A DNA stretch of 64,000 nt from positions 86,368,001-86,432,000 of the forward strand of contig NC_086108.1 of assembly GCF_963921235.1 (NCBI RefSeq), written 5' to 3'. This DNA is from Mobula hypostoma (Eukaryota). This document shows positions 2,816 to 37,607 of the stretch, in pieces. The position numbers and the translations under genes are program-made. The notes beneath the pieces were generated by a model. The model searched no databases. It was not told the DNA's origin and worked only from the letters and a program-made list of their open reading frames with translations. Each line of letters starts with the position of its first letter. Position 1 is the stretch's first letter.

Positions 2816-5709
2816 TCCATACCAGATGTAGCAATTCAGATTGACAGGTTTACTATACACCATCAGGATAGATGCAGAGCAGAGGTGGAGGAGTATGCCT
2901 CATGATCAACTCTTCTTGGTGCACAAACATATCAGTGCTGTCCCAATTCTGTGCATCAGACCTGGAATATCCAGCAGTAAAGTGCCATCCTTTTTACCTA
3001 GCACAGGAATTTTCTGGGGTCATTTTGTTTACATTTCAACTCAGATCAATGTCAAGCAGGCTTTAGATGATCTGAGCAATGGGACCAACATGCATGAAAC
3101 AGTGCACCCTAACGCCTTCACCATTGTTTTGGGAAATTTTAACCAGGTCCGTCTGAAAAAGTCACGAAGCAACAACCACCAACAGATCACTTGCAATACC
3201 AGAGGAAACAACAGACTGAACCATTGCTACACCATCAAGAATGCCTATCGTGCTATTCCATGCGCTCACGTTGGGAAGTCTGATCACCTAACTGTGCTTC
3301 TACTCCCTGAATATAGGCAGAGACTATAGGCAGCACCAGCTGTGAGGACCAAGAGGATATGGACCAAGAAGCACAAGAGCGTCTACAGGACTGCTTTGAA
3401 TCGGTGGACTGGACTGTATTCAGGGATTCATCTTCAAACCTGGATGAATATGCTGCAGTTGATACTGACTTCATTAAAACCTATGTGGATGAGTGTGTGC
3501 CCACAAAGACTTACTGTACATTCCCAAACCAAAAGCCATGGATGAACCAGGAGGTACGTTGCCTGCTGAAGATCTGTGGCATTCAAGTCTGGCGACCCAG
3601 GCCTGTACCAGAAAACCAGGAATGATTTGTGGAGGGCTATTTCAAAGGTGGAGAGACAATTTCAAATGAGGTTGGAGGTGACATTGGATGTATGGCAACT
3701 CTGGCAGGGTCTGCAAGACATTACTTCCAACAAATCAAAACCCAATAGCATGAATGGCAGCAATGCTTCACTACCAGATGAACTCAACACCTTCTATGCA
3801 CGTTTTGAAAGGGAGAACACAACTACAGCTGTGAAGATCCCTGCTGCTTCCTATGACCCTGTGATCTCCGTCTCAGAGGTCAATGTTAGGCTGTCTTTAA
3901 AGAGAGTGAACCCTCACAAGGTAGAAGGTCCCGATAGAGTACGTGATAAGGCTCTAAAAACCTGTGCCAATCAACTAGCAGGAGTACTCAAAGACATTTT
4001 CAACCTCTCAATGCTATGGGAGGAAGTTCCCACTTGCTTCAAAAAGTCAACAATAATACCAGTGCTTAAGATAAATATTGTGGGTTGCCTTAATGACTAT
4101 ATCCTGGTAGCACTCACATCTACAGTAATGCAATGCTTTGGGAGGTTGGTCATGACTAGACTGAACTCCTGCCTCAGCAAGGACCTGGACCCACTGCGAT
4201 TTACCTATCCCCACAACAGGTCAACAGCAGACACAATCTCAATGGCTCTCTACACAGCTTTAGACCACCTGGACAACGCAAACACCTACGTCAGGATGCT
4301 GCTCATTAACTATAGCTCAGCATTTAATACCATCATTCCCACAATCCTGATTGAGAAGTTGCAGAACCTGTGTCTCTGTACCTCCCTCTGCAATTGGATC
4401 CTTGACTTCCTAACCAGAAGTCCACAATCTGTGCGGATTGGTGATAACATATCCTCCTCGCTGACGTTCAACACTGCTGCACGACCGGGGTGTGTGCTTA
4501 GCCCACTGCTCTACTCTCTATATACACAGTACTGTGTGGCTAGGCGTAGCTCGAATACCATCTATGAATTTGCCAACGATACAACCATTGTTAGTAGAAT
4601 CTCAGGTGGTGATGAGAGGGCGTACAGGAGTGAGATATGCCAACTAGTGGAGTGGTGCTGCAGCAACAACCTGGCACTCAACGTCAGTAAGACAAAAGAG
4701 CTGATTGTGGACTTCAGGACAGGTAAGACGAAGGAGCACATACCAATCCTCATAGAGGGATCAGAAGTGGAGAGTGTGAGCAGCTTCAAGTTCCTGGGTG
4801 TCAAGAACTCTGAGCATCTAACCTGGCCCCAACATATCAATGTAGTTATAAAGAAGGCAAGACAGCGGCTATACTTTATTAGGAGTTTGAAGGGATTTGG
4901 CGTGTCAACAAATACACTCAAAAACTGTAGTTGTACAGTGGAGAGGATTCTGACAGGCTGCATCACTGCCTGGTATGGAGGGGCTACTACACAGGACCGA
5001 AAGAAGCTGCAGAAGGTTGTAAATCTGGCCAGCTCCATCTTGGGTACTAGCCTGCAAAGTACCCAGGACACCTTCAGTGAGCAGTGTCTCAGAAAGGCAG
5101 CATCCACTATTAAGGACCTACAGCACCCAAGGCATGCCCTTTTCTCACTGTTAGTATCAGGAAGGAGGTACAGAAGCCTGAAGGCACACACTCAGCGATT
5201 CAGGAATAGCTTCTTCCCCTCTACCATCCGATTCACAGAGAGAGTGGTGAATCTGTGGAATTCTCTGCCACAGGAAACAGTTGAGGCCAGTTCATTGGCT
5301 ATATTTAAGAGGGAGTTAGATATGGCCCTTGTGGCTAAAGGGATCAGAGGGTATGGAGGGAAGGCTGGTACAGGTTTCTGAGTTGGATGATCAGCCATGA
5401 TCATACTGAATGGCGGTGCAGGCTCGAAGGGCCGAATGGCCTACTCCTGCACCTATATTCTATGTTTCTATGATTCCTAAATGGACATTGGATCTTTAGA
5501 CACTACCTCATTTTTTTAAAAATATACATTATTTCTGCTTTTGCACTTTTTAAAAATCTATTCGATATACGTATACCGTAATGGATTCACTTATTTATTA
5601 TTATTATTATTTTTTCTCTCTGCTAGATTATGTATTGCATTGAACTGCTGCTGCTAAGTTAACAAATTTCACAACACATGCTGGTGATAATAAACCTGAT
5701 TCTGATTCA
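2816..5709 (+). mobile_element. Rex1/Babar-clade LINE (APE-RT), 5'-truncated and non-functional
   Basis: APE fragments (RGGGVCLMIN, GKSDH). The 601-aa ORF 3576-5381 has RT motifs, but the catalytic FADD is mutated to FAND. Ends AATAAA + (GATTCT)n. Confidence 0.9.
5235..5471 (+). mobile_element. CR1 3' fragment inserted in the Rex1 ORF end
   Basis: RVVNLWNSLP motif, (TTCTATGT)-type tail, and GATTC duplicated at 5230-5234 and 5472-5476. Confidence 0.85.
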
Positions 5710-6267: not shown

Positions 6268-8393
6268 CCTAATGCACTGATACTCACCCTGCTGGCTGCA
6301 ATTTTCTCTTATCATCTTCCTGACCTTCCTGACAGTCTGACTGTACCCTATCTTTGTGTTTTTTTTACCATATGTCCTATCCTGAGTCTCTTCACCCCAT
6401 TTCCCACCCCTCTGCCTAGTTTAAACACTCCCCAACAGTCTAGCAAACCTGCCCGCGAGAATATTGGTCCCTCTCAGGTTCAGGTGCCACCCGTCACTTT
6501 TGAGCAGGTTATACCTCCCCCAGAAGAGATCCCAATGATTCAAGAACCCGAAGCCCTGCCCCCTGCACCAGCTTCTCAGATATGCTTCTATCTGCCAAAT
6601 CTTCCTGTTTCTACCTTCACTGGCACGTTGCACAGGTAGCAATCCAGAAATTATTACTCTGGAGGTTCTGCTTCTCAGCTTTTGTCTAGCTCTCTAATTC
6701 TCTCTCCAGGAACTCTTTGCTTTTCCTTCCAATGTCATTGGTACCATTATGTACCAAGACATCTGGCTGTTCTCGCTCCTCCTTAAAAATGCTGCGGACA
6801 TGATCTGAGACATCCCTGACCTTGGCACGTGGGAGGCAACATACCATCAGGGTGTCCTGTTTACATCCACAGAATCTCCTGTCTGTTCCCCTCACTACTG
6901 AGTCCCCTATCACTACTGCTCTCCCCTCTCATCCCTCTTTCCCTTCTGCACCAACGACCCACGCTCAGTGCCAGGACGCATGCATTCCTCTGGGAGATCA
7001 TGCCCCAGAACAGTATCCAAAACGGTATACTTATTATTGAGGGGAATGGCCACCGGGGTGCTCTGTGCTAACTGCCTTTTTACCTTCCCGTTTCTTTTCC
7101 TGACGATCACCCAGCTACTTGCCTCCTGCAACTTAGGGGTGACTACTTTCCTTTAACTCCTATCGATGACCTCCTCACTCTCCCGTACAAGCCGAAGGCC
7201 ATCCAGCTGTTGCTCCAGATCGCTAACACGGTCTTCAAAGAGTTGCAACTGGATGCACTTCACGCAGATGTAGTTCCCTGGGAGTCTCACAGAACTCCAG
7301 CATTCAGTATGAAGAACACACAACAGCCATTTACTACACTCGGTACAGTAAGAGAGAGAAAAAGGGAACCTTAACAGAAACTTACCCTGAGCCAATGCTT
7401 CATTCCTGGGAATTCACTTCATGGATTACCTCAATTGGTCCTTTAATACGCCTCCCTGAACAAGGCGGCACAGTACTGCCTCAATTTTCTCAAAAGATTG
7501 AAGCAAGCAAGGCAACCACACCCCGTCCCCATCATCTTAACTGTGTTTTACAGTAGCGTCATTTACAGTGTCCTGACAAGTTGCATCTCCATCTGGTATG
7601 GGAACAGTTGAGCATTAGACCAGAAGTCCCTACAAAGGACTGTGAGAACAGCTGAGAAGATCATAGGGGTCTCCCTACCATCCACTGGGGGTAATGATCA
7701 GGAGTGCTGCATATTGCATATACAGCGCCCTTAGAACTATTAAGGATCCCACCCATCCATCCAGCATCCTCTTTGACTTTCTACCATCAGGTAGGAGACT
7801 ACGATGCATAAAAACAAGAACGGTCAGGATGAGGAACAGTTTCTTCACCCAGGCCATTAGGCTTCTGAGCTCCCTGCCGCATCGCATTCGAAGTGGGTAG
7901 GTTAATTTGTTCCGTACCTTACAATATTTAATATTAATGCACTTTAGTTTGTTATCATGTATGATTCAGCTGTAGATTTTAACCTTTCTTCATAAATTAT
8001 CATGTGTTATGTGTACTACACTGGTTTGGAGAAATGTCTCGTTTTTATATCCATTATATTGTTTATATATGTTAACATTTATACTGTAGAGTTAAATGAC
8101 AATAAACTTGACTTGATTTGACGTAGCATTATATCAGCAGCATTCAGATGAAAAACAAAGATATATACAATTTTACAAGCAAGAACACAATTAGAACATA
8201 TTGTTGCTAAGCAGTAGTGATTACAGATTTGCTGGTTGGTTGAAGAACTGAATAGCTGAAAGCAGGTAGCTGCACTTGAAGCTGGTGATGTGGGAATTCA
8301 GGCTTCTGTACCTCCTGCCCAGTGGCATAGCCCAAATGGTAGGGAACTTTGATGATAAATGTTGCCTTCCTGAGAAAGCACCTCCTGTGTGAT

Positions 8394-9050
8394 GGTATTG
8401 GGTTTGCTGACCACAAAGTTCTCAACTCAGAAGAAGACCTTAAGCCCTATTGGATATAAATAGCCATGAGTACTCTCACTATACTATACTATAAGTACCC
8501 AATCTTCAAAGACTAATTGACTTCCCCATTTATTCCATGGTGAGCTTAGCTACCAATGCCCACTATTTGAGGGGTGGGTCCCCTCTCCGTACCATGGCAA
8601 GGATACTTCCAGCTAACAAAGTAATTTAAAAGCAGTTTATTTATTTTCAGTGATAGACGTTTAAGTCCAAACAACATTCTTCACACACATTTAAAACTCA
8701 CAGGGGATTTTTATCTTAAACATTTCCAAATTACAGACTATTTCTAAAACACAAAGCATTCCCAAAACACAAGGTACAATTCCTATAAACTAAAAAGACA
8801 TACCAACAATGCGGATGAATGAATCATCCATTACAGAAATCGAAGTGAGAGGAATGGATTTTAGTTTTCTTTCTTTAATGCTTCCTGATGTTCCTTATTC
8901 CATTCCTAATAAGCCTGAACTGTTCTTGACATTTATACCCTTTTTTTTGCCATTTGGGTGACTTTGCACATGCACATATGATATTTCCTCAGATTCCCTT
9001 AGGAGTGGAACTGTATACAAAAAGCAGAAGTCACCAAACTTCCATTCTTG
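8394..9050 (-). mobile_element. Putative 3' LTR remnant of the foamy-like ERV
   Basis: Follows the env stop directly. On the minus strand: TATAAA at 8937-8932, AATAAA at ~8645-8636, and an ...AATACCA end next to an unrelated LINE fragment. No second LTR is available to confirm. Confidence 0.45.
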
Positions 9051-9057
9051 CAGGCTT

Positions 9058-10392
9058 CAATGTTTCAGCAGAAAGAGCACCACAAAAACAATAGCTCCAA
9101 TGGCTAGGGGGAATTGGCCCATTGAAAAACTGCAAAAAACAATACCTGTAACCCAATTTAATGTCATGCCAATCTACCCAAAAACTACATTTTCCACGAC
9201 AGAAGCTAAATCAGCAACAGCTGGAAAGGTCTTAACTATTGTTTCAGCTACAGCAGGGGTTCTCAACCTTTTTTATGCCCTGGATCCACACCATTAAGCA
9301 AGGGATCCATGGACCCCAGATTGGGTACCCCTGAGCTAGAGTGTTAAGTCAGCCCAGGTGTTAGTATGGGTCTCCAAAGGAAAGTTGTGAAAGGAGATGC
9401 CTCGCTCCTCTGATTGTGTCAGTTTGTTACTCTCGCAATGTATAGAGAAATGCTCTTTTGATTTGACTGAGTTTCTTCGAGCCATTGTTGATGAATATCA
9501 AGTCTTCCTCAAATATTCTTAGTAACATCTATCAAAAATCATTCCTTAAAACTGCACTTGCGTTTCTGTCTTGAGATATGCAATAGAGATTAAATCGTCA
9601 AATCAGGCCGAGTCATTTCCTCTCTAAACCTCAAAAAGTGTGTAATCCTCTGAGAGCAGTACATCTAAACAACATTTGTCATCAGTAATTTCTACCTTCT
9701 GAGTGTAACAAAGGAGCGCATTGATGCTATTATGAGAGTGAGGATTGTCATGGCATAGGAGTACAGCCAGTTCTATTGTATTATTAAAAAAAAATCATGA
9801 AAATTGTTTACAGCCCGATCGTGATTTACTCTCTGCCTGTTGATGATAACACCATGTGACTGAATACACAGCAATAATTGAAGGCTTGCTTGTGTAAGTG
9901 ACGTTGTCTACTTGAGGAGTAATGTTATCTGGATAACCCCAAAAATTAACATTATCAATCGATTTCCAACAGTAAAATTTGCCATAGGCTTGTTTCTCCA
10001 TTCTTCAATTTATGGTCAAAGTCTACCTGAACTGTAATTGAACTTGTAAGGACACCAGTAATTCTGAACTAATTTTTGTTGTATATATTATTCACACAAC
10101 AGAACAAATTATCCAAGACTGTTTGACTAAGGGAAAATTGGAAATCTAGGTAGTCTATGGGACTAAAATCTCTAAAAATAATATTAGACTTATCAGTTTC
10201 AGTTGAACAGAGAGGAAAACATTTTTGCTTTATTTTAACTTCTGCTTTCCTGCATTTTTCCATTTTGTCTTCCTATGCAAAAACCTGGAACAAAGACTTC
10301 TCTGTACCATTTAGAATATAACCCAGAAATGCTGAAAATTGTCATGTTACTTTGGACATTTAAAATGGAGTAGAATAGTATCCATAAATAAA
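9058..10392 (-). pseudogene. env: Foamy-like ERV env, TM ectodomain and membrane anchor (decayed)
   Basis: Minus-strand translation gives IYGYY..T*QFSAFLGYIL; PSIIAVYSVTWCY (ORF 9795-10001; cf. foamy PSIVTVNETTSCF); IRGARHLLSQLSFGD; and KTFPAVADLAS...FPLAIGAIVFVVLFLLK (cf. foamy DVWPAAASAL...PILIGVGVILLVILIFK). Confidence 0.75.
9254..9333. mobile_element. hAT-type MITE (80 bp) inserted in env
   Basis: Termini CAGGGGTTCTCAA...TTGGGTACCCCTG. 8-bp TSD AGCTACAG (9246-9253) / AGCTAGAG (9334-9341). Confidence 0.85.
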
Positions 10393-13300
10393 GTAATGGA
10401 AGTGTCTGAAAGGTCTGAAGGTAGATAAGTCATCTGGACTAGATGGACGACATCACAGAGTTCTAAACGAGATAGCTAAAGGGATTGTGCAGACATTATT
10501 AGTGCTCTTTCAACAACCATTAGATTCCGGCGTGGTTCTGGAGGACTGGAAAGTTGAAAATGTCACTCCACTCTTCAAGAAGGGATGGAGGCAGAAGGAA
10601 TGAAGTTATAGGCCAATTAGCTTGACCTCGGTAGTTGGGAAAATGTTGGAGTTGATTGTCAAGGGTGAGGTTTTGGCTTACTAGAATGGACGTGACAAAA
10701 TAGGCCAAAGTTAATATGGTTTCCTTAAAGGAAAACCTTTCCTGACCAATCTGTTAGAATCTTTTGAAGAAATAACAAGTGAGATAGACAAAGGAAATTT
10801 GGTGGATGTCGTGTACTTTGATTTTCTGAAGACCCTTTACAAGGTGCCACAAATGAGTCTCCTAAACAAGATAAGAGCCCGTGGTATTAGAGAAAAGATA
10901 CCAGCAGGGATAGAGCATTGGCTGATTGACAGGAGGCAAAGAATAGGAATAAAAGAATCCCCTTTGGATTGGCTGCTGCTGATTAGTGATGTTCCACAGG
11001 GGTCTCTGGTAGGACTGCTTCTATTTACATTGTATATTAATGATTTGGATGACAGAATTGATGGCTTTTTGGTAATTTTGCAGATGATATGAAGATAGGC
11101 GAAGGGGCAGGTAATATTGAAGAAAGAGACAGGCAGCAGAAGGACTTAGATTAGGAGAATGGCAAAGAGGTGGCAGATGGAACACAGTGTCAGAAAGTAT
11201 ATGGTCGTGTGCTTTGGTAAAAGGAATAAAAACGTAAACTATTTTCTAAATGGGGAGAAAATTCAAATATCAGGGATGCAAGCAGTTTTGGAAGTCCTCG
11301 TGCAGGATTCCCTAAAGGCTAATTTGCAGGTTGAGTCACTGGTTAGAAAGGCAAATGCATGATCTGAGCAATAGGATTAACATGCACGAAACAGCGCACC
11401 CTGACACCTTCACCATCATCTTGGGGGATTTTAACAAGGCCAGCTTGATAAAGTCATTACATAATTATCATCAACAAATCACTTGTGCTACCAGAGGAAA
11501 CAACACACTGGACCATTGGACGTTTGTTACACCACCATCACAAATGCCTACCATGCTATTCCTTGCCCACACTTCAGAAAATCTGATCAGCTGACTGTAC
11601 TTCTACTCCCTGAGTATAGGCAGAGACTGAAGACTGCAGCATTAGTAGTGAGGACCAAGAAGGTATGGACAATTGAAGCACAGGAGCACTTACAGGACTA
11701 CTTCGAATCGGACTATATTCGGGGCATCATTTTCGTATTTGGATGAGTGTGGCACAGTTGTTACCGACTTCATTAAAAACTTGCTGTACATTCCTAAACC
11801 GAAAGCTGTGGATAAACCAGGAGGTTGGTCATCTGCTGAGGGCCAGATCTGTGGCACTTGGGTCGAGTGACCTAGGTCTGTTCAAGAAAAACAGGCATGA
11901 CTTGATGAGGGCTATTTCAAGTGCGGAGGAACAATTCAGAGTGAAGTTGGAGACAACATCCTTTGCATGTAAACTCTCGCAAGGTTTGCAGGACATTACT
12001 TCCTACAAAGCAAAACCCAATACATGAATGGCAGAGATAGTTCACTACCAGATGAGCTCAATGCCTACTATGCCTGCTTTGAAAGGGAAAATGTACCTAC
12101 AGCTGGGAAGATCTATGTTGCACCCAGTGACCCTGTGATCTCTGTCTTGGAGGCTGATGTTAGCCTGTCTTTAACAAGGGTGAGTTCTCACTAGGCAGCA
12201 GGCCCCAAAAGAGTACTGTACTTGGTAGGGCTCTGAAAACTTGTACCAACTAACTGGCAGGAGTATTCAAGGACATTTTCAACCTCTCACTGCTATGGTC
12301 GGAAGTTCCCACCTGCTCCTAAAAGGCAACAATTATCCAGTGACCAAGAAGAGCAGTGTGAGCTGCCTTAATGACTATCATCCAGTAGCACTCACATCTA
12401 CGGTGATGAAATGCTTTGAGAGGTTGGTCATGGCTAGAATGAACTCTTGCCTCAGCAGGAACCTGAACTCACTGCAATTTGCCTATCAGTACAATAGATC
12501 TACAGCAGACGCAATCTCAGTGGCTTTTCACACGACCTTAAATCACCTGGACAAAACAAAAACCTATGGCTGGATGCTGTTCATTGACTTTAGCTCAGTA
12601 TTTAACACCATCATTTACACAGCACTGATCAACAAGCTCTATACCTCTATAGCTCTGGGCCTCTATACCTCCCTCTGGAACTGGATCTTCAACTTCCTAA
12701 CTGGAAGACCGCAACCTGTGCGTATTGGTGGTAATATGTCCTCCTCGCTGACGTTCAACACTGGTGCACCTCAGGGGTGTGTGCTTATCCCACTGCTCCA
12801 CTCCCTCTATACCCATGACTATCTGGCTTAGTCTTGCTCAAGTACAGCTATAAATTTGCTGATGCTGGTAGAGTATCTCAGATGGAGATGAGGGGACACA
12901 CAGGAGTGAGATATACCAGCTAGTGGAGTGGTGTCACAACAACAGCCTTGCACTCAGTGTCAGTAAGACGAAAGAGATGATTGTGAACTTCAGGAAGGGT
13001 AAGATGAGGGAACACATACCAATCCTCATAGAGAGAGCAGAAGTGGAGAGAGTGAGCAATTTCAAGTTCCTGGGTGTCAAGATCTCTGAGGATCTAACCT
13101 GGTCCCAACATATAAATGCAGCTATAAAGAAGGCAAGACAACAGCTATAATTAATTAGGAGTTTGAAGAGATTTGGTTTGTCACCTTCTCCACTGCAAAC
13201 CTTCTATAGATGTGCTGTGGAGAGCATTCTGACAGGCTGCATCACTGTCTGGTATGGGAGGCTACTGCAGAGGACTGAAAGAAGCTATAGAAAGTTGTAA

Positions 13301-13546
13301 AATTAGTCACCTCCATCTTGGGCACTGGCCTCCGTAGTATCCAAGACAACTTAAAGGAGCGGTAACTCAGGAAGGCGGCATCCATTATTAAGGACCCGCA
13401 TCACCCAGGATATGCCCTTTTCTCATTGTTACCATCAGGTAGGAGGTACAGAAGCTTGAAGGCACACACTCAATGATTCAGCAACAGCTTCTTCCCCTCT
13501 GCCATCTGATTCCAAAATTTACATTGAACCCATGAACACCACCTCA

Positions 13547-13552
<6 letters not shown>

Positions 13553-13578
<26 letters not shown>
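13553..13578. repeat. (TA)n microsatellite
   Basis: Direct reading. Confidence 0.95.
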
Positions 13579-13579
<1 letters not shown>

Positions 13580-13646
13580 CTGTTTTTGCACAATTTTTAA
13601 TCTATTTAATATACATATACAATAACTATAATTGATTTATTTATAA

Positions 13647-13845
13647 ATTCTTAAGTTTCCAGCCGGGTACAGGTATCAATTATAACGGACCTTTCAATGA
13701 CAAACTCTGCCATCCTCATCAGGGATGATCTGTGGTGAAATTGGCAGAGTTTGTCCTCCAAACGTTGGTTATAATTGATACCTGTACCTGGCTGGAAGCT
13801 CAAGAATAGTTTATTCATTATATACACCGGGAAAGCACTAGATCC
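13647..13845. mobile_element. Penelope-like family B terminal fold-back (inverted) insertion
   Basis: TTCTTAAGTTTCCAGCCGGGTACAGGTATCAATTATAAC pairs with GTTATAATTGATACCTGTACCTGGCTGGAAGCTCAAGAA. The minus arm has CTGATGA-GGATGGCAGAGTTTGTCATT-GAAA. Matches the PLE termini at ~17570 and ~37640. Confidence 0.8.
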
Positions 13846-13957
13846 ATTTACATATCTGTTATTTTTTATTTCTCTATTTATTTATTTATACATTTATTTG
13901 TTCTTTCTATATTATCATGTACTGCATTGAACTACTGCAGTTAAGTTAACAAATTTC

Positions 13958-14348
13958 CATTGCAAGGACGAGGCTGAGGGTGAACCCAAGTGCAGGACAC
14001 AGGCACAGAGGCAGAGTCATAAGGCATTAGCACCACCGCGAATAGGGAACCGGTATCCAGGAGAGTCTTTACACAGAGACAAGGTTTAGGTAGGGTATCT
14101 AGGAAATGATGCGGAGCTTAGAACTGACAGTCCCACAGAATCAGGAAACAAGGTTTACTCACAATAGAGTCAACCAACAAACTGGCAAAGCATGGCTGTA
14201 CCGCATGGTTTTACCCTATGTTTGCTAATGGGAATCAGGTGTGCTGTAATTAGCGGAACTAGGAATGACTGGAAATCAGACGAGGGGATTAAGGCCCAAT
14301 TTAAGGAGCTAATAGCAAGATGGGGAATTGCTAGACGGGACCATGACA
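13958..14348 (-). mobile_element. Solo LTR (Gypsy-like), same family as 44673-45942
   Basis: 5-bp TSD ATTTC (13953-13957 / 14349-14353). Shares the end GGACCATGACA and similar opposite-end sequence with the 44673 LTR. Confidence 0.75.
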
Positions 14349-14899
14349 ATTTCACAACACATGCCAGTGATAATAAAGCTGATTCTGATTCTGATTCAAT
14401 GTTAGCATTTATTTCAAGGGGACTAGAATATAAAGCAAGGATGTAATGCTAAGGCTGTATAAGGCATTGGACTGGTGAGGCCACACTTGGAGTTCAGTGG
14501 AGGTTCACGAGAATGATTCTGGAAATGATAAATTTATCATATGAGCAGCAATTAGTCTCGCTAAAATTAGAAGAATGTTGGGGGGGGGCGTTATGGGTAG
14601 AATCTCTTGATATCTATCGAATGTTGAAAGGCCTAGATAGAGTGGATGTGAAGAGTACGTTTCCTCAGGTGGGTGAGTCTAGATCCAGAGGCCACAGCTG
14701 CCAAATAGAAGGCTTTCCATTTAGGACAGAGATTTAGCCAGTGAAGCTAAATCCTGGAATTTATTGCTGTGGAGACCAGGTCACTGGGTGCAGTTGAGGT
14801 GAAGGTAGATAAGTTCTTGATTAGTCAGGGCATGAAAGAATATGGGGAGAAGGCAGGAGAATGAGGTATGAGAGGGAAATGGATAAGCCATAATGAAAT

Positions 14900-15553
14900 A
14901 AGCCAGATTGACACTGTGGTTAAGAAGGCGTACGGTGCATTGGCCTTCATCAATCGTAGAATTGAATTTAGGAGCTGAGAGGTAATGTTACAGCTATATA
15001 GGACTCTGGTCAGACCCCACTTGGAGTACTGTGCTCAGTTCTGGTCGCCTCACTACAGGAAGGATGTGGAAACTATAGAAAGGGTCCAGAGGAGATTTAC
15101 AAGGATGTTGCCTGGATTAGGGAGCATGCGTTTTGAGAATAGGTTGAGTGAACTCGGCCTTCTCTCCTTGAAGCGGCGGAGGATGAGAGGTGACCTGATA
15201 GAGGTGTATAAGATGATGAGAGGCATTGATCGTGTGGCTAGTCAGAAGCTTTTCCCCAGGGCTGAAATGGCTGCCACAAGAGGGCACAGGTTTAAGGTGC
15301 TTGGGAGTAGGTACAGAGGAGATGTCAGGGGTAAGTCTTTATGCAGAGAGTGGTGAGTGTGTGGAATGGGCTGCCGGCAACGGTGGTGGAGGTGGATACG
15401 ATAGGGTCTATTAAGAGACTTTTGGATAGGTACATGAAGCTTAGAAAAATAGAGCGCTATGGGTAATCCTAGTAATTTCTAAGGTAGGGACATGTTCGGC
15501 ACAACTTTGTGGGCCGAAGGGCCTGTATTGTGCTGTAGGTTTTCTATGTTTCT
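14900..15553 (+). mobile_element. Younger CR1 3' fragment inside the older CR1 tail
   Basis: ORF 14985-15356 LYRTLVRPHLEYCAQFWSP. Tail TTCTATGTTTCT. Confidence 0.9.
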
Positions 15554-15616
15554 AAATGGTGGAGCAGGCTCGCTGGGTCAAATTGCGTAATTCTGCTCCT
15601 ATGTCTTATGGTCTTA

Positions 15617-16246
15617 AAGTCTAAAATCTTCATAATAAGTATGTTTACATAGCTGTTGACCATAAGGGGAGAAGTCTTCATTTTAAAAATTAGTGTTTTT
15701 CACAACGTTCTAGTTTAGCGCTTTCAATGCCTTCTTCCCATGAGTGGGATCATTCATTAACATAAGTATAGTATCTATACTTTTCTTCAAATGTAGAAGG
15801 AATCAATTGCAAGGGATTCCTCTGTTCGTTTACTTTCAATATCTGGCTGGAATCTTTCAGTTTTGTCATGGTGTTATTAATCATTTCTGAAAGTGATTCC
15901 AGTGTATTAGTTCACATATGACCAAGAGGTAAGGACCATTTAGTATTATTTAAATTAGAATCATCATTGCTCGCAGATCTCCTTAATCTAATATTCTCTG
16001 AGTCATTAAGTTTTAGGGGTGTTTGAGCCAGATGAGATAATTTCCATAGTAAGTGCAAATTCATCTGCAAAAAAAAGCAAATGGCAAGTCAGGCAGCACT
16101 GAACAATATTATCATAAATATTAAAAGTAAAATACAGCAAAGGCAACATTTCTTCCTGGTGTCTGTCTGAAAAAAAACAACACATTCTGTATGTATTATC
16201 CTGAGGCAATGTTGCTATGAGATCTTCCTCAAGTGAATAAGAATTT
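15617..16246 (-). pseudogene. env: Foamy-like ERV env, SU/TM junction with furin site
   Basis: NSYSLEED; ENIRLRR|SASN (RLRRS at 15989-15975); GHM*TNTLESLSEMINNTMTKLKDSSQILK, in register with remembered foamy GYALTGAVQTLSQISDINDENLQQGIYLLR. Confidence 0.75.
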
Positions 16247-17732
16247 CTCAGCATATCATTCTCTGCAACTCCCACCACCTCCAAAGGAATCCTACTGCCA
16301 AACACACCTTTAACTCCCTCCCCACTCTTCACTTTCCACAAGGATCACTCCCTCCATGATTCCATTGTCAAATCGTCCCTCACCACTGATCTCCCTCCCG
16401 GCACTTATCCCTGAAATTAGCCAAAGTGTTGCAACTGCCCATTCACCTCTTCCCTCACCTCCATTTAGGGTCCCATGCAGCCTTTCCAGGTGAGACAACA
16501 CTTTACCTGCAATTCTGTTGGGGTCACCTATTGTGTCTACAGCTCCCAATCCGGTCGTCTCTACATTGGGGAGAGCATCATAAATTGGGGGACTGCTTTG
16601 GCGAGCACCTGCAGTTTACCTGCCAAAAACGGAAATCCCAGTGACCAAACATTTTAATTCCCATTCCCATTCCTGTTGTGACATGGCGGTCCATGGCTTC
16701 CTCTTGTGCCATGATGATGCCACCCTAAGGATAGAGGAAGAATGGCTTATATTCCGTTTGGATAGCCTCCAACCTGATGGCATGAATATCAATTTCCCTT
16801 GCCAGTAAAAAAAAATTCTCTCCCCCTCCTCTCTTCTTCTATTCCCCACTCTGACCACTTATCTCACCTGCCTATCACCTCCCACAGTGTCCCTCCTCCT
16901 TTCCTTTCTCCCACAGTGCACTCTCCTCTCCTATCAAATTCTTTCCTCTCTAGTCCTCGACATTTTCTACTCACCAGGCTTCACCTATCACCTTCTGGCT
17001 ATTCTGCTTCCCCTCCCGCCACCTTTTTATTGTGGCATCTTCACCCTTCCCTTCTAGTCCTGAAGAAGGGTCTCCGCCCAAGATGTAAACTGTGGATTAA
17101 TACCATCCACACACCGGACAGGAAGCTCAAATTTCAGTTTATACGGGTCAAAGGTGACCAAGAACTCAGGTCAGCTGGCGTTTACAGGATTCCCTGTGAA
17201 TATGGAGCAGTATATGCTCGCCAGATGGTATGCACAGTGGAAACTTGCATCAAGACGCACAGGAGATTTGTTACCCAGAGAAATTGATGATAGCAGAACA
17301 TTGCATTCGCAATGGCCATAGGATTGACTTCGACAGCATAAAACTATTGTGCCACACCAATGGCTTTGGGGATTGTCTGGTGAGGGAAGACTTTTAAATA
17401 AAACTAGAGGAAAAGAATTTCAGCAAAGATGGTCTTGCTCTAAGTAAGAACTGGAACTCAATTCCAAGCAAGATGGGAGAGCAGAAACTTGATTGGATGA
17501 GGACTAATGAAGCAGGAGGGACAGACTAAAGTGTAAATACCACCGCACTAGACATACCCAGCCACTATCCCTGATGAAGATGGCAGAGTTTGTCATTAAA
17601 ACAGCAGTTATAATCAATATGTGTACCCGGTTGTAAGCTCTTCATTTCCATGGATGCTGCATGACTTGCTGAGTTCCTCCAGAATTTTGTGTGTTGCTTT
17701 GGATTTCCAGCATCTGCAGTATTTCTTGTGTT
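16247..17732 (+). mobile_element. Penelope-like element family A, 3' part (GIY-YIG plus terminal repeat), with family B nested inside
   Basis: FTCNSVGVTYCV..LYIGES..LGDCFGEHL (GIY-YIG). Decayed hammerhead at ~17056-17090; the terminus resumes at 17641. Possible TSD TAAGAATTT / TAGGAATTT. Confidence 0.85.
17093..17640 (+). mobile_element. Penelope-like element family B, 3' part (GIY-YIG plus hammerhead-bearing terminus)
   Basis: GVYRIPCEYGAVY..TVETCIKTHRR. CTGATGAAGATGGCAGAGTTTGTCATT at 17571. Homologous to the minus-strand copy at 37544-38355. Confidence 0.85.
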
Positions 17733-18330
17733 TAGGAATTTTTTCATTGCTTTTCAGATCTATTTTTTATCTTTTCAATACATCTCATTTCCCCCTTCCC
17801 ACTGGGGAATAGGGGTTCTGTGGTGGACCCTAATTTCAGTGTTCCACTCACCCTGCAGGGATAAATCCTCCTGGGACAGGTTTGATGGTATCTATAGAGA
17901 CAGTTTACTCATAGTCTTGTCCTGGCCCCCTTCTCAATGATCTCAGATCTATCATTGATAACCTGGGTAACGAGACAAGGAGGTTTCCAGTAGAATTTAA
18001 ACTAGGGTCACAATTTTATGGAATTTGTTTTTCTTGTACTCAGTCCCCTTTTTGTGGTCTCTAAAATATCTTGTCTGGTCCCTTTGCTTTCCCTTGAATT
18101 CTCATAAACTCTCTCAGTTCCTTGAGGAGAAATGTATAGGATATAGGGAATGGTTGCCTTGAGTTAGCGATCGGGGTGTATTTCGATGAACATTGTACAT
18201 TAGAAGTTCTAACGTTCTTGTGTCTTCCTACTTTTGAAATTGGCACTTTGTTTACTGGCAATTGCTCTTCAGGGACAAGTGTAGCCTACTTGCCTCTAGA
18301 ATAGACCAATCATTTGCAACTAGAATGGAG
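17733..18330 (-). pseudogene. env: Foamy-like ERV env SU fragment
   Basis: EDLSLQGEWNTE, then RCIEKIKNRSEKQ*KNS, which joins in frame to YSLEED across the PLE insertion (cf. foamy PICIEQQKIRDQDYEVYSLYQEC). Confidence 0.55.
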
Positions 18331-18334
18331 TGTT

Positions 18335-19189
18335 TTCATTGAATAGTAGTCTGAATGCCTTTACCACTAAAGGAAGATCTTGGTCGGCATGCATGCAGGC
18401 GGGGGTGCCAGCGTATATTGTTCTGGGGTGCTGTGATGGTTGTGGTCTCACTACAGGAAGTTGTGGAGACTATCCACGTATATCCTGTACAATGACTGTT
18501 GTCACAAGAATATATTTATTAGGCTTCCAATATGTGGGCTTCCTGGGATGCAAGAAATGGGCCTATATAATCAATTTGCCACAACTGCATTGCAGTGGCT
18601 GGTTTTGCTTGTCTTACAGGAGTTGGTCTTGTGACTGCTCCAACAAATTGCTTCAGCATGTAAGGTCACCTGTATAACATAGTTAATTTTGCATGAGTGG
18701 CTTGTCCACCACTATCATTGTGTCGGAATCCTTGAATCAGTGCTTCCCACTTGTGATCAGTGGGTATTTGCTTCTTATCTATTTTAGGGTGGCATGCCCA
18801 AACCTCACCTTCTTCATCAGCTTCATATTTGTACTGTGTGGGAGATCCTTTAAAACTGGGTATAGTAGTATCTAGGAGAACTCCTAAAACGTTATCCTGG
18901 TTATTTTTTATTTGTTGCTCAGTTACTACAAAAATCCTGGCCTCCCTTGCCATAGCAAGGACCATCCCAATAGCTTGTTTTGCTTGTTCATTGGCTTGTT
19001 AATTACCAAAATTGTGTAAGAGGCCTGTAGTATATCCCAGGATGTGTAACACCTGTATAGTTCAATAATAGTTCATAAATTTTCTTCCACGTGGACAAAT
19101 ATGGAAGCAGTTTGCCTCTGTGTTCTCCATCTGGTAGTTGACCAGATGGGAAGATCTTTTTCTTCCATATTCCTAAAATAACTAGAGTC
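18335..19189 (-). pseudogene. pol: Foamy-like ERV pol, RNase H C-half plus integrase N-terminal and core region
   Basis: DSSYFRNMEEKDLPIW..KLLPYLSTWKKIYELL..GN*QANEQAK; FKGSPTQYKYEADEEGEV; GGQATHAKLTMLYR*PYM; WQIDYIGP (18581-18558); TGYTW; PACMHADQ. Colinear with remembered prototype foamy virus Pol motifs. Confidence 0.85.
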
Positions 19190-21364
19190 CATTTCTTCTT
19201 GATCTATAGTAATGAGTTCAAGGTGTGGAGCGCAGTACCCCATCTTGGCATGAACCTATTACAGTGACTAACAAATCCTAAAATGAACTGTATATGTGCC
19301 ATGTCCTTTGGCCTTGGCATCCCCTACTGCTTGAATTTTCTCAAAACATTTGCCTAATCCTCATGCGTCAATGGTATGACAACAGTAAGTGATGCTTAGT
19401 CTAAATAATTCACACTTGCTGTATTGTGCTCTGAGCCCATCATCATCTTCTCTTTTTACCACTGTCTTGAGTTGTTGGAGATGTTCCTTGTCATCCTTAC
19501 CATTAACAATTACATCATCCATGTAACACTAAGTGCCTGGGCAGCCTTGCAGTACCTGGTCTGTAGCTTTCTGCTAGAGTGCAGGTACAGGTGTTACTTC
19601 AAAATTAAATCCATTATAGTGATAAAGCCCTTTGTGAGTTTCTTTAGTGAGCAACAATTTGGACTCTTCTTCCATCTCCACTTGTAGGTATGCTTCAGCT
19701 AATTTACCTTCCCACACCTGGATTTTGTTTCTTTGTTTTTGAGTTAATTCTGCACCCATTCGTACACCTTCACCTGAATCCCTACCTCCTGTAACTTGAT
19801 TATTAGCCCTTGTGGGGTACCTTGTCAAAAGCTTTCTGGAAGTAAATTATATCCACTGCTCTACTGTTATCATAAATTTTAGATGTTTCTTCACAGAACT
19901 CCAGCATATTAATAAAACATGATTTCTCCTTTCTGAACCCAATCTGGCTTTCTGCTAACATGCCTGTTGTTATCAGCTGCTTTCCATCTCATTCTTTATT
20001 AATGTTTCCATTATCTGACCTACGATATGTGTTCAGCCGATTGGTCTATAGTTACCAGGGTCAGTGCAGTCACCCTACTTGTATACCGGGCAACCCGCCC
20101 ATTTCCAGTCCTTAGGGATTTCACCAGTCTTCGCTGACTTTTGAAAAATACATTTTAGGGGTTTATATATATAATCACAGACCTTTTTAAGTACCTTGGA
20201 TAAATGTTGTCTGGCCCTGGAGATTTACTAACTTTCAACCTTTTAATCTGAAGCTGGATCTCACTTTCTAAGATCTCTAAGTCACTTAAAACAACCTTAT
20301 TTTTCTCTACACTTACTGGCACGTTGCTAACATCTTTGGAGGTGAATACTTCAGCAAAATACGAGTTAAGGTTATCTGCTATGTCCTTCTCTGCATAATT
20401 TAACTCTTCACTATTATTCCATCCTGACTATAGCTCTCATACTTTCATTTGCCCTATGGTTAACATAATTACTATTTTTTTCTACATTCCTTATATAGCT
20501 GTCTTTTCTTCAATAATTTTTATGCATAGCTTTAATCCATGTAGTTCATCTATTGTTTTTATTGCTTCTCCCAACCTTGGGTATGAACTTTTTTCTGCAC
20601 TGCGCGTATTACCTCTTTAAATTGACTCCATTTCTAACCAGTTTCTAACTGACTAACCAGTTCCTCCCAGTTTACCTTTTGATGTCTTTGCCGCATCTGC
20701 ACAAACTTTGCCTTTCTGAAATTGAATTTAATGGCTTCCATGGGCTAAGTGTTCATCATTAAGTTTTTAAGTGCATCATTAAGCCCATCACTGAACTGAC
20801 AATGCTCAGACAACCTCTTCAATTCCGCCATGTTCACTGAAATGAACTCCTCTTTCTTTTGATTCTGCTTTTGAAACTTAAAGCATTCTGCAATGATCAG
20901 TAGTTTCCATTTTAACTGTTCCTGCATTACTTTCACAATATCAGCAAAGCTCATTTCGGCTGGTTTGGTTAGAGCAGTCACACTTCTAAGCAAACTGTAT
21001 GCCTTTAAACCCAATGCATTCAGTAAAATTCACACTCACTTCTCACTGCCTATTTTGTTTGCTTCAAAATACTGCTCATTATACAACACACAGTTATCTT
21101 TTTGTGCAATCAATTGCGTCAAACTTTCTGACCTTTCTACTTTCTTTATTGATGTTTATGAACCTGTGAACATCCATTTTCTGCCTTTTTTAAAAACTCA
21201 ACCCTATCTTTTTCTTCAAAAGAAGGACATGCTGTGCTGCTTTATTTTTTTGAAAGAAGAATACACTGTGCAGCATTTCTCACTGCACTTTTTTAAAAAC
21301 TGTTTTTCTGCACTTCAACTGGTAGATGGCCGTGTCTGGTTCATTATAAACTTATTTTTGCTAC
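19190..21364 (-). mobile_element. Ty3/Gypsy internal fragments: gag ~20640-21130 and RT ~19190-19710, split by a CR1 fragment ~19810-20640
   Basis: gag GLKAYSLLRS..KPAEMSFADIVKVM..ELKRLSEHCQF. RT LAEAYLQVEM..THKGLY..CYMDDVIV..KEHL. Confidence 0.85.
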
Positions 21365-33589: not shown

Positions 33590-35495
33590 TGGATTTGTGC
33601 ATAAGGTCAAAATTTTCAATTAGCTGAGAAATATATTTTCTTATCCTTATGAACGTTCTTTGGAAAAAGTCAAAATTTGTACCATAGACTCAGAGAACTG
33701 TAACACCAGCATATCATGGCACAAAAAGAAGTAATTCAGACCAGTGAATCTATATTTCTCTGAGTAATTCCATGAATCATAGAAACCATAGAAACTACAG
33801 CACAGAAACAGGCCTTTTGGCCCTTCTTGGCTATGCTGAACCATTTTCTGCCTAGTCCCACTGACCTGCACACGGACCATATCCCTCCATATACCTCCCA
33901 TCCATGTATCTGTCCAATTTATTCTTAAATGTTAATAAAGAACCCGCATTTACCACCTCGTCTGGCAGCTCATTCCATACTCCCACCACTCTCTGTGTGA
34001 AGAAGCCCCCCCCCTAATGTTCCCTTTAAACTTTTCCCCCCTCACCCTTAACCCATGTCCTCTGGTTTTTTTCTCCCCTTGCCTCAGTGGAAAAAGCCTG
34101 CTTGCATTCACTCTATCTATACCCATCATAATTTTATATACCTCTATCAAATCTCCCCTCATTCTTCTACGCTCCAGGGAATGAAGTCCTAACCTATTCA
34201 ACCTTTCTCTGTAACTGAGTTTCTTAAGTTCTGGCAACATCCTTGTAAACCTTCTCTGCACTCTTTCAACCTTATTTATATCCTTCCTGTAATTTGGTGA
34301 CCAAAACTGAACACAATACTCCAGATTCGGCCTCACCAATGCCTTATACAACCTCATTATAACATTCCAGCTCTTATACTCAATACTTTGATTAATAATG
34401 GCCAATGTTCCAAAAGCTCTCTTTACAACCCTATCTACTTGTGACGCCACTTTTAGGAAATTTTGTATCTGTATTCCCAGATCCCTCCGTTCTACTGCAC
34501 TCCTCAGTGCCTTACCATTAACCCTGTATGTTCTACCTTGGTTTGTCCTTCCAACATGCAATACCTCATACTTGTCTGTATTAAACTCCACCTGCCATTT
34601 TTCTGCCCATTTTTCCAGCTGGTCCAAGTCCCTCTGCAGGTTCTGAAAATCTTCCTCACTGTCTACTATACCTCCAATCTTTCTATCATCAGCAAATTTG
34701 CTGATCCAATTTACCATATTATCATCCAGATCATTGATATAGATGACAAATAACAATGGACCCAGCACTGATCCCTGTGGCACACTAGTCACAGGCCTCC
34801 ACTCAGAGAAGCAATTCTCTACCACCACTCTTTGGCTTCTTCCATTGAGCCAATGTCTAATCCAATTTACCACCTCTCCATGTATACCTAGCGACTGAAT
34901 TTTCCTAACTAACCTCCCATGCGGAACTTTGTCAAAGGCCTTACTGAAATCCATGTAGACAATACCCACTGCCTTCCCTTCATCCACTTTCCTGGTAACT
35001 TCCTCGAAAAACTCCAATAGATTGGTCAAACATGACCTACCACGCACAAAGCCATGTTGACTCTCCCTAATAAGTCCCTGTCTATCCAAATGCTTGTAGA
35101 TTCTGTCTCATTAGTACTCCCTCCAATAATTTACCTACTACCGACGTTAAACTCACCGGCCTATAATTTCCCAGATTACTTTTCGATCCTTTTTTAAACA
35201 ACGGAACAACATGAGCCACTCTCCAATCCTCCAGCACCTCACCAGTAGACAGCGACATTTTAAATATTTCTGCCAGGGCCCCCGCAATTTCAACACTAGT
35301 CTCCTTCAAGGTCCGAGGGAACACTCTGTCAGGTCCTGGGGATTTATCCACTTTAATTTTCCTCAAGACAGCAAGCACGTCCTCCTTTTCAATCTGTACA
35401 GTTTCCATGATCTCACTACTTGATTCCCTCAATTCCATAGACTTCATGCCAGTTTCCTTAGCAAATACAGACCCAAAAAAACTATTTAAGATCTC

Positions 35496-35733
35496 AAACA
35501 ACAGGAATTCTGCAGATGCTGGAAATTCAAGCAACACACATCAAAGTTGCTGGTGAACGCAGCAGGCCAGGCAGCATCTGTAGGAAGAGGTGTAGTCGAC
35601 GTTTCAGGCTGAGACCCTTCGTCAGGACTAACTGATTTAGTCCTGACGAAGGGTCTCGGCCTGAAACGTCGACTGCACCTCTTCCTACAGATGCTGCCTG
35701 GCCTGCTGCGTTCACCAGCAACTTTGATGTGTG
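35496..35733. mobile_element. PLE family A fold-back insertion (97-bp inverted arms, 5-nt loop)
   Basis: Perfect 14-bp TSD CTATTTAAGATCTC (35482-35495 / 35734-35747). Arms 35535-35631 and 35637-35733 differ at 2 positions. Confidence 0.95.
35638..35675 (+). ncRNA. Minimal type I hammerhead ribozyme motif (mirror copy on the minus strand, ~35593-35630)
   Basis: UAGUC-CUGACGA-AGGGUCUCGGCCU-GAAAC-GUC^GACUG: stem I UAGUC/GACUG, intact core, palindromic ACGU stem III, predicted cut after 35670. Confidence 0.8.
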
Positions 35734-37607
35734 CTATTTAAGATCTCCCCCATTTCCTTTGGTTCCGCACATAGCCGACCACTCTGATCTTCAAGAGGAC
35801 CAATTTTATCTCTTACAATCCTTTTGCTCTTAATATACCTGTAAAAGCTCTTTGGATTATCCTTCACTTTGACTGCCAAGGCAACCTCATGTCTTCTTTT
35901 AGCCCTCCTGATTACTTTCTTAAGTATTTTCTTGCATTTCTTATACTCCTCAAGCACCTGATTTACTCCCTGTTTCCTATACTTTTCATACAACTCCCTC
36001 TTCTTCTTTATCAGAGTTGCAATATCCCTTGAGAACCAAGGTTCCTTATTCCTATTCAATTTGCCTTTAATCCTGACAGGAACATACAAACTCTGCACTC
36101 TCAAAATTTCCCCTTTGAAGGCTTCCCACCTACCAATCACATCTTTGCCAGAGAACAACCCGTCCCAATCCATACTTTTTAGATCCTTTCTCATTTCTTC
36201 AAATTTGGCCTTCTTCCAGTTCAGAACCTCAACCCTAGGACCAGATCTATCCTTGTCCATGATCAAATTGAAACTAATGGTGTTATGATCACTGGAACCA
36301 AAGTGCTCCCCTACACAGACTTCCGTCACTTGTCCTAACTCGTTTCCTAACAGGAGATCCAATATTGCATCCCCTCTAGTTGGTCCCTCTATATATTGAT
36401 TTAGAAAACTTTCCTGAACACATTTTACAAACTCTAAACCATCTAGACCCCTAACAGTATGGGAGTCCCAATCAATGTATGGAAAATTAAAATCCCCTAC
36501 CACCACAACTTTATGTTTCCTGCAGTTGCCTGTTATCTCTCTGCAGATTTGCTCTTCCAAGTCTCGTTGAGTATTGGGTGGCCTGCAATACAATCCCACT
36601 AATGTGGCCATACCTTTCCTGTTTCTCAGCTCCACCCAAAAGGACTCAGTAGACAAGCCCTCTAATCTGTCCTGCCTGAACACTGCTGTAATATTTTCCC
36701 TAACAAGCAATGCTACTCCCCCTCCTTTCATTCCTCTGCCTTGATCACATCTGAAACATTGGAACCCTGGAATATTAAGCTGCCAGTCCTGCCCCTCCTG
36801 TAGCCAAGTTTCACTAATTGCTATAACATCATAATTCCACCTGTCAATCCACGCCCTCAACTCATCCGCCTTCCCCGCAATACTCCTAGCATTGAAATAT
36901 ATACACCTCAGAAGATTTTTACCACCACTCACAACCTTTCTATCAGCAGATTTGCTTGAACTTTTAACATCATTTATTTTCACCCCAGCCACACTGTCAG
37001 CTCTGGCATTCCTGTTGTCTTTCACTTTACTAATAATTTTCCATTTATTCTTTCTCAAGTGCTTATTCCTGATTAAAGATATTGCTATCGTCATTCAGTA
37101 AGTTGCTGATCATGATCAGCTTTGAGTAAAATTTTTCTCCTTGTAACTTTTGCCTAATACTTTAAATTGATGCTTCATGAAGCACCTGCTAATGTAACTG
37201 CTTCCTGACACTTGCTCTGTCTAAACTAGTTATGATCTATTTAAATCACTTCTTACTCCTCTTTGCTTGAAGGAGGACAAAAAACAGATTCACCAGTCTA
37301 ATCATGTAGCTGAAAACCCCTGCTCTTAGCAAAGTTCTGATAAATCTAGTGTACTCTATCAAGGAACTTTCTGAATTCTTCTGAAGTGAATAATAAGAAT
37401 TGCACCCAATAATCTAGTTGTAGCCAAATCAGTATTTTGCGCATTCTGTGACTTAGATGATGAGAAGTTTTTTTTTCTTTTAATTATTTTGCTTCATACT
37501 AATGTCTTACTCTAAGTGTTTTAGTATATTGTAATTAAAAAAAGGATCTATTGCTTTCCTTGCGTATATGACGAATGAACTCTTCTCAAGCTTCCAGCCG
37601 GGTACAA

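Follow-up and report, generated by a model that had tools for sequence, protein, structure and literature searches.

A fragmented, very probably foamy-like endogenous retrovirus and the possible germ-line amplification of its putatively fusion-defective family

On the minus strand of a 64,000-nt stretch of a 3.48-Gb genome (G000:C50:86368001-86432000, called the window below, by which the whole of the DNA analysed is meant) lies what remains of an endogenous retrovirus (ERV) that is, with only slight doubt, foamy-like. It is the 3′ half of a decayed provirus, at 8388-19189, where about 4.0 kb (4,030 nt) is element-derived and comprises the end of RNase H, integrase, env and part of the 3′ long terminal repeat (LTR), all split by three later insertions. 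What history would leave hundreds of such copies in one genome, sharing a short envelope transmembrane subunit (TM) and, in roughly half of them, lacking the active site of reverse transcriptase (RT)? The answer favoured here, with a probability of roughly 0.6, is that a foamy provirus whose envelope could not mediate fusion was amplified in germ cells in one old burst, and that an RT-less derivative of it was mobilised in trans.

That the scattered pieces belong together is learnt from their relatives. All five of the other genomic copies compared are colinear with window 19189-17734, 16246-15616, 10411-9334 and 9255-8998, and the window’s inserts are absent at those places from most sister copies, the exception being copy L018, which carries the same miniature inverted-repeat transposable element (MITE); because of this colinearity the window segments are taken together as one element, broken by three insertions. 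Pieces other than integrase being too decayed to match databases alone, sister copies were used, and it is because these match that RNase H and env are assigned in the window. The end of pol and the start of env are contiguous in copies L015 and L016. A first-pass annotation had proposed a hidden foamy-like pol-env-LTR element split by insertions, and this is borne out by the colinear copies, by integrase matches that are to prototype foamy virus (PFV) only and by the RT of sister copies; the peptide motifs it quoted do sit in minus-strand frames at the places it gave, spread across several frames which, over 17734-19189, carry 21-32 stops each. Its three inserts stand as well, but the large one ends at about 10407-10411 and not at 10393. 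The end it gave for the element, 8394, has to be moved to the LTR end at 8388, where 75-98 contigs per run stop with unrelated flanks. Judged against sister copies, env and LTR abut only through a deletion of about 1.5-2.3 kb at 8998/9000, by which the post-env region was lost along with the LTR’s first half. A purine run near 8940 was considered as a polypurine tract and rejected, as it sits within LTR sequence. A search of the remaining window for the provirus’s 5′ half came up empty, and the locus is dead, with no sign of host use. The pieces, the insertions and the neighbouring remnant are as follows, SU being the surface subunit of Env, LINE and SINE long and short interspersed nuclear elements and ORF an open reading frame.

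8388..9000, minus strand: last ~610 nt of the 3′ LTR, matching the 5′ LTRs of sister copies.
8998..9253, minus strand: TM end of env, with an amphipathic stretch, a hydrophobic anchor at ~9110-9063, a stop at ~9057 and a short 3′ tail; it aligns to sister copies as far as 8998.
9254..9333, no strand given: MITE of 80 nt; its ends are short and inverted, a target-site duplication of 8 nt (7/8 identical) flanks it, and we take it to be hAT/Charlie-like.
9334..10410, minus strand: env SU, the second basic site ARRN and a short stretch after it; homologous ORFs of L014 and L018 match PF03408.
10411..15615, no strand given: LINE fragments that arrived later and lie nested inside env, with pieces of RT and of endonuclease and with RVT_1 at E 3e-17 (12229-12828) and weaker matches; presumably CR1-like and L2/Rex-like.
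15616..16246, minus strand: 5′ part of env, running from the leader peptide and its hydrophobic segment through RLRR into the start of SU, placed by copy alignment; ~100 nt are missing at 15898 relative to sister copies.
16247..17733, no strand given: later insertion of 1.5 kb at the pol/env border, with a duplication of ~8 nt; it combines a SINE-like end with what we take, from a motif, to be a Penelope-like GIY-YIG remnant.
17734..19189, minus strand: 3′ part of pol (RNase H end and integrase), with a PFV integrase match in PDB and colinear in 5/5 copies; it has many stops and frameshifts and has itself lost short stretches (~65 nt near 18330, a second near 18600).
19190..19720, minus strand: RT remnant of Ty3/Gypsy type (RVT_1, E 9e-10), from another repeat family and not part of the foamy element.

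The affinity of pol is the firmest part of the identification. With stops read as X, window 18330-19019 matches five distinct PDB sequences at E<=1, every one of them PFV integrase (best E 5.1e-5), in an alignment that takes in the N-terminal part. The RT of sister copy L005 scores 105 bits against foamy Pol in PDB (E 4.5e-29), compared with 46 for caulimovirus, 41 for Ty3, 33 for murine leukaemia virus (MLV) and 12 for human immunodeficiency virus, while that of L015 gives E 9e-13 for foamy and 0.84 for MLV; RNase_H (PF00075) is recognised in the matching region of L005 (E 1.8e-5) and L007 (E 1.3e-4). The window’s own 12 frames gave no retroviral family in Pfam (0/12) and its RNase H piece no match in PDB. 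The window has no gag, and among nine frames from three sister copies one matches PF20672 (Gag_FV_central) at E 0.001, which is below the curated cut-off. A Lys-type primer site follows the 5′ LTRs of sister copies at seven loci, with six exact matches in the genome and none for a control; its first 14 nt are, allowing for CpG decay, identical to the site that the relevant part of PMC6955096 prints for ERV-Spuma-Cbo, an avian endogenous foamy virus. The foamy LTR range given there is 950-1,700 nt (PMC6955096), and the full LTR here is of ~1.1 kb (L021, L016, L028) and begins with TGT after a purine run; such a run precedes the TGT in two copies, and the exact GGGTG motif is not among them. Sister copies share extra sequence after env, and the few ORFs scanned there gave no informative match. 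The pol-env-LTR order of a foamy-like ERV is supported, and neither Gypsy nor ERV-L fits. The RT of L005 and L015 is closest to foamy and not to Ty3/Gypsy, and ERV-L, which is not known to have an env and has a Leu primer site, is at odds with the env-like gene and the Lys primer site.

Can so decayed an env be called foamy? Two of 96 short ORFs match PF03408 (Foamy_virus_ENV), those of sister copies L014 at positions 318-388 (E 0.0012) and L018 at 355-397 (E 0.0047); the positions are consistent, and no other viral envelope family reaches E<=0.2 among the 96. A foamy Env match of the kind looked for in the first-pass annotation is hinted at, below Pfam’s curated cut-off, in L014 and L018 but not at significance in the window’s env pieces, whose ORFs show no PF03408 and of which one frame, compared with PDB, gave no foamy match. 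A leader-peptide ORF taken to the ESM Atlas returned one unnamed cluster at 0.76 and no lead. What remains legible is the layout, since a hydrophobic leader peptide is followed by two furin-type sites at a foamy-like distance, as in a tripartite Env. RLRR lies at 15989-15978, some 30 codons after the N-terminal hydrophobic segment, and the second basic site, ARRN, at 9482; they are 458-485 codons apart in five of ten copies, four others being longer through inserts and one unmeasured. The foamy Env furin sites, in the portion of PMC11468914 that treats them, are at 122-126 and 567-570, about 445 apart. Because both this spacing and the hydrophobic segment correspond, RLRR would be the leader-peptide/SU site and SU would be of full length, and ARRN is, by its spacing, the probable SU/TM site. 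The basic site at RLRR had been noticed before, but there it was placed between SU and TM.

From ARRN to the anchor there are just 89-98 codons in eight of ten copies (one is longer by the MITE and one unmeasured), and in foamy Env the corresponding distance is about 378 codons, as given in the same portion of PMC11468914. Of 39 other env places, 26 align through most of this stretch, three more are short and ten give no information, and a long form was met at none of them; where both flanks independently located a place, as they did in seven cases, there is no extra sequence, and copies that bear the RT core are likewise short in TM. Three copies in which the env alignment ends near the second basic site were tried as long forms and rejected, the causes being a small deletion, a large deletion and an insertion. 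Since the TM pieces match neither Pfam nor PDB, it is spacing that argues for TM loss: it points to a founder deletion of some 280 codons, which would have removed most of the TM ectodomain.

A further loss distinguishes members of the family from each other. The foamy RT alignment of L015 skips about 72 residues that include the active-site motif, and this deletion, of ~216 nt, is shared by roughly half of the copies. Measured at 34 places, the distance separating the RT flanks comes to 17-34 nt at 30 of them and to 245-248 nt at two, and is aberrant at the other two; this ratio is biased because 30 of the 34 were located with the deleted query. Less affected estimates come from equal-length queries taken from one copy, which gave 65 core candidates against 161 for the thumb, and from ten copies first located by RNase H/integrase, four of which have the core and five do not, one being unclear. 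The deleted class is also without the RT N-terminus and, by length, protease; the core-keeping copies are themselves full of stops and frameshifts. In the window copy three of three diagnostic columns side with the RT-less class, in a comparison whose leave-one-out control is weak; the RNase H/integrase tree does not separate the classes. Further internal-deletion variants exist: L022 (9050-10000), an RT-core-bearing copy, has RT within ~1 kb of the LTR, and G000:C71:41693449-41694280 has only ~830 nt from primer site to RT thumb.

The first-pass annotation considered endogenous foamy viruses rare, and advised a search of the assembly for other copies and of related species for the orthologous insertion. 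Rare this family is not. Its candidates in the genome are 367 for pol, 291 for env and 4,108 for LTR, 68-80% identical over long matches, these being first-look counts with 40 scored in each search; internal copies would number about 200-370. Twenty RNase H/integrase segments give a star-shaped tree, in which none of the 17 inner branches is supported and the median tip is 0.13. Mean Kimura distance from the window is 0.23 (19 copies), with 0.26 for env (9) and 0.225 for the LTR (5), and the single 5′/3′ LTR pair gives 0.224 over only 181 nt. The locus itself is covered by contigs from all four of the other organisms, differing by about 1.4-2.4% in B, 5-8% in C and D and 8-10% in G. The MITE border is bridged in all four and the env-LTR deletion in B and C, while the LTR/flank border is bridged by at least 31 letters only in G, with 27-28 in the others; because borders are bridged in other organisms, insertion and later events predate the four splits. 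The great age that had been surmised from the nesting is in this way supported independently, by divergence and by orthologues. How great? A tip of 0.12 becomes ~80 million years (Myr) at the 1.5e-9 per year that is assumed for jawless fish where PMC10699275 deals with rates, and 550 Myr, which is implausible, at the 2.2e-10 assumed for sharks (PMC4422223). We take ~80 Myr as a rough minimum.

The course of events envisaged would start with germ-line infection by a foamy-type (spuma-related) retrovirus, leaving a provirus whose env was by then without most of the TM ectodomain. It would still have been transcribed, packaged, reverse-transcribed and integrated, with no membrane fusion by its own Env, and one old burst, most likely of intracellular retrotransposition, would have yielded the several hundred internal copies and thousands of LTRs. 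A derivative without protease, the RT N-terminus and the RT active-site region would have been copied in trans by RT-bearing members, after which all copies would have decayed neutrally, the window copy losing its 5′ half, post-env region and half of its 3′ LTR by deletion and gaining three insertions. Intracellular retrotransposition is possible for primate foamy genomes according to the pertinent section of PMC3705263, and ERVs without working env tend to higher copy numbers, to go by what PMC4643047 summarises.

Might the copies have come from outside the cell instead? It is less likely, though it has to be taken seriously, that defective genomes spread by reinfection, with Env, and for the RT-less class Pol, supplied by an intact virus that circulated alongside them and of which few copies, or none, stayed behind. 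Foamy capsids require cognate Env for budding (PMC3705263, in the part concerned with assembly), RT had in any case to be provided in trans for about half of the copies, and env is kept nearly as widely as pol, going by the candidate counts above of 291 and 367; but a helper that drove hundreds of insertions should have left some copies with a long TM, and none was seen. We consider it unlikely that the short TM is a native, working Env with its second cleavage site further upstream, so that reinfection was of the ordinary type and only the RT-less class was defective. All copies do share the form, RT-core-bearing ones included, fish foamy-like Envs vary in size as PMC5210030 describes some of them, and the Pfam anchors span just positions 318-397. 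Nevertheless the basic sites fall where the Pfam anchor predicts, at about 130 and 594 compared with 122-126 and 567-570, and some 95 residues cannot house the long central helix and the domains set out in the structural part of PMC11468914.

The alternatives that would deny the element its foamy identity have still less to commend them. It is quite improbable that it is a class III ERV from outside the foamy clade (ERV-L, snakehead-like or a lokiretrovirus) which looks foamy only as foamy proteins are the nearest solved structures. There is no reference tree, and wide protein searches gave no relatives, which leaves room for such a view, but the foamy-specific Gag and Env Pfam matches, the two-site Env, the Lys primer site and the long LTR all stand against it. 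The fusion glycoprotein-like Env family PF00523, which is the lokiretrovirus mark (PMC7947760), was found in none of the 96 ORFs, a search of limited sensitivity on such short decayed ORFs. The reading of the element as coincidental motifs in unrelated repeats, or as Gypsy, is in effect refuted. It could draw on the window frames having no retroviral Pfam match and on the Gypsy-type remnant, whose best PDB matches are caulimovirus and Ty3 RT, and which joins the foamy RNase H on the same strand and in frame at 19189/19190, where the 5′ half was lost. However, that junction is spanned in none of 39 other scored places and the Gypsy family, with ~1,900 candidates, is a separate repeat family; being unique among the 40 places, the junction is probably a local deletion. 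Sister copies have foamy RT at that place, with the RT scores given above, and the pieces are colinear in independent copies.

Several matters weigh against a fusion-dead foamy provirus amplified within germ cells. None of 20 TM pieces matched a viral family in Pfam, and TM pieces compared with PDB had no match there, where env pieces more generally gave no foamy match. The TM ectodomain of a teleost foamy-like Env is of ~227 aa in the relevant part of PMC5210030, and fish TM forms can be natively shorter, though not as short as here. With 40 candidates scored per search, a rare long-env class could escape. ‘Closest to foamy’ is relative to a PDB set in which no ERV-L, snakehead, loki or fish foamy-like proteins were among the matches, and the Env and Gag matches are below Pfam curated cut-offs, in a range where chance matches are similar (PF22697, E 0.0017). 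A genome-wide search with PF03408 and PF03539 gave no matches, the PF03408 filter being stricter and no positive control having matched. Also, feline foamy virus retrotransposes inefficiently (PMC3705263, in the same section). It remains the preferred reading that such a provirus was amplified in germ cells.

A cartilaginous-fish foamy-like element is reportedly the subject of a 2023 article by Wang, Chen and Cui in J Virol 97:e0181622, as its title has it. Others are known, including CmiFLERV (described in part of PMC5512871) and ERV-Spuma-Sca, which is multicopy with 293 elements (PMC10699275, in its account of that lineage), and six chondrichthyans have a mean of 474 clade III RT loci per genome in the figures of PMC11089739 that concern them; because of these, neither the class nor the high copy number is new. 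Compared by description and not by sequence, CmiFLERV and ERV-Spuma-Sca are of the same general kind and presumably of the same host class, as the repeat types make a cartilaginous fish the probable host here; the parts of their papers that describe them do not mention deletions shared between copies in env and RT. With the prototype and simian foamy viruses (Spumaretrovirinae) the present element has in common the best PDB matches for RT and integrase, the weak Gag and Env family matches, an Env with a leader peptide and with its two basic sites a comparable distance apart, the Lys primer site and the LTR length; what differs is that here it is endogenous, dead, in several hundred copies, some 280 codons short in TM and, in about half of them, without the RT core. 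The teleost foamy-like ERVs (AciFLERV, AliFLERV, DrFV, PpERV) share a foamy-like Pol, in many cases the Lys primer site, and long LTR elements. In their published outlines, however, they have extra ORFs between pol and env (PMC5512871, PMC5210030), whereas here env follows immediately on pol; the Gag and Env of the teleost elements are described there as without detectable foamy homology, in contrast to the weak foamy matches here. The env-less superspreaders and non-autonomous ERVs (intracisternal A particle-like; PMC4643047) resemble this family in high copy number, defective env and internally deleted dependants, but those treated in that part of the source are orthoretroviral, and here most of env is kept and TM alone is short. 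The literature searched yielded no account of a foamy family whose copies share deletions in env and RT, and the supplements of PMC5512871, PMC10699275 and PMC9972966 may list the lineage. It is a tentative suggestion, on which we would not insist, that this is an undescribed cartilaginous-fish foamy lineage, with the true foamy viruses (those of tetrapods and the coelacanth) as nearer kin than the foamy-like ERVs of teleosts, and that it turned genomic retrotransposon, with a fusion-dead founder, one Mesozoic or older burst and an RT-less parasite subfamily.

Foamy viruses anchor the deep retroviral timescale, with cartilaginous-fish members near the root, and hundreds of copies together with cross-species insertions offer minimum ages free of an assumed rate. 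Were the proposal true, it would offer an example from nature of foamy viruses retrotransposing intracellularly in a germ line, the orthologous insertions would be many calibration points for foamy virus age, and a census based on RT would miss about half of the copies. Should the short TM mean that fusion was truly lost, the family puts to the test whether spumaviruses, as orthoretroviruses are known to have done, made the change from retrovirus into retrotransposon.

Of the insertions in the window copy, the MITE is met with at the same env site and in the same orientation in L018 (2734-2815, G000:C1), on a different contig. The two MITEs are 80% identical, equal to the identity between unrelated MITE copies, and the empty site is seen in four copies (L010, L011, L013, L015); either this is a hot target site or the MITE was carried by a master copy. 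The 5.2-kb LINE nest repeats elsewhere in the window and is absent from sister copies, and the 16247..17733 insertion gave no Pfam match. L061 has, at 90-727 in element orientation, a ~640-nt insertion just past the second basic site of env, with a peptide motif that we take to be Tigger/pogo-like. Outside the element, a scan of 41 ORFs of at least 105 aa found no host gene family, and there is no tRNA or Rfam match in the window, which looks like repeat-rich non-coding DNA. At 3570-5381 on the plus strand there is an open LINE RT frame of 603 aa (RVT_1, E 9e-17) ending in a stretch that matches ALKBH8_N; since that match recurs at 44101-44736, it is repeat-derived and not a host gene. A comparatively young LINE occupies 33953-37094 on the minus strand, with open frames for endonuclease (460 aa) and RT (385 aa), and is broken at 35535-35733 by a near-perfect 97-nt inverted repeat.

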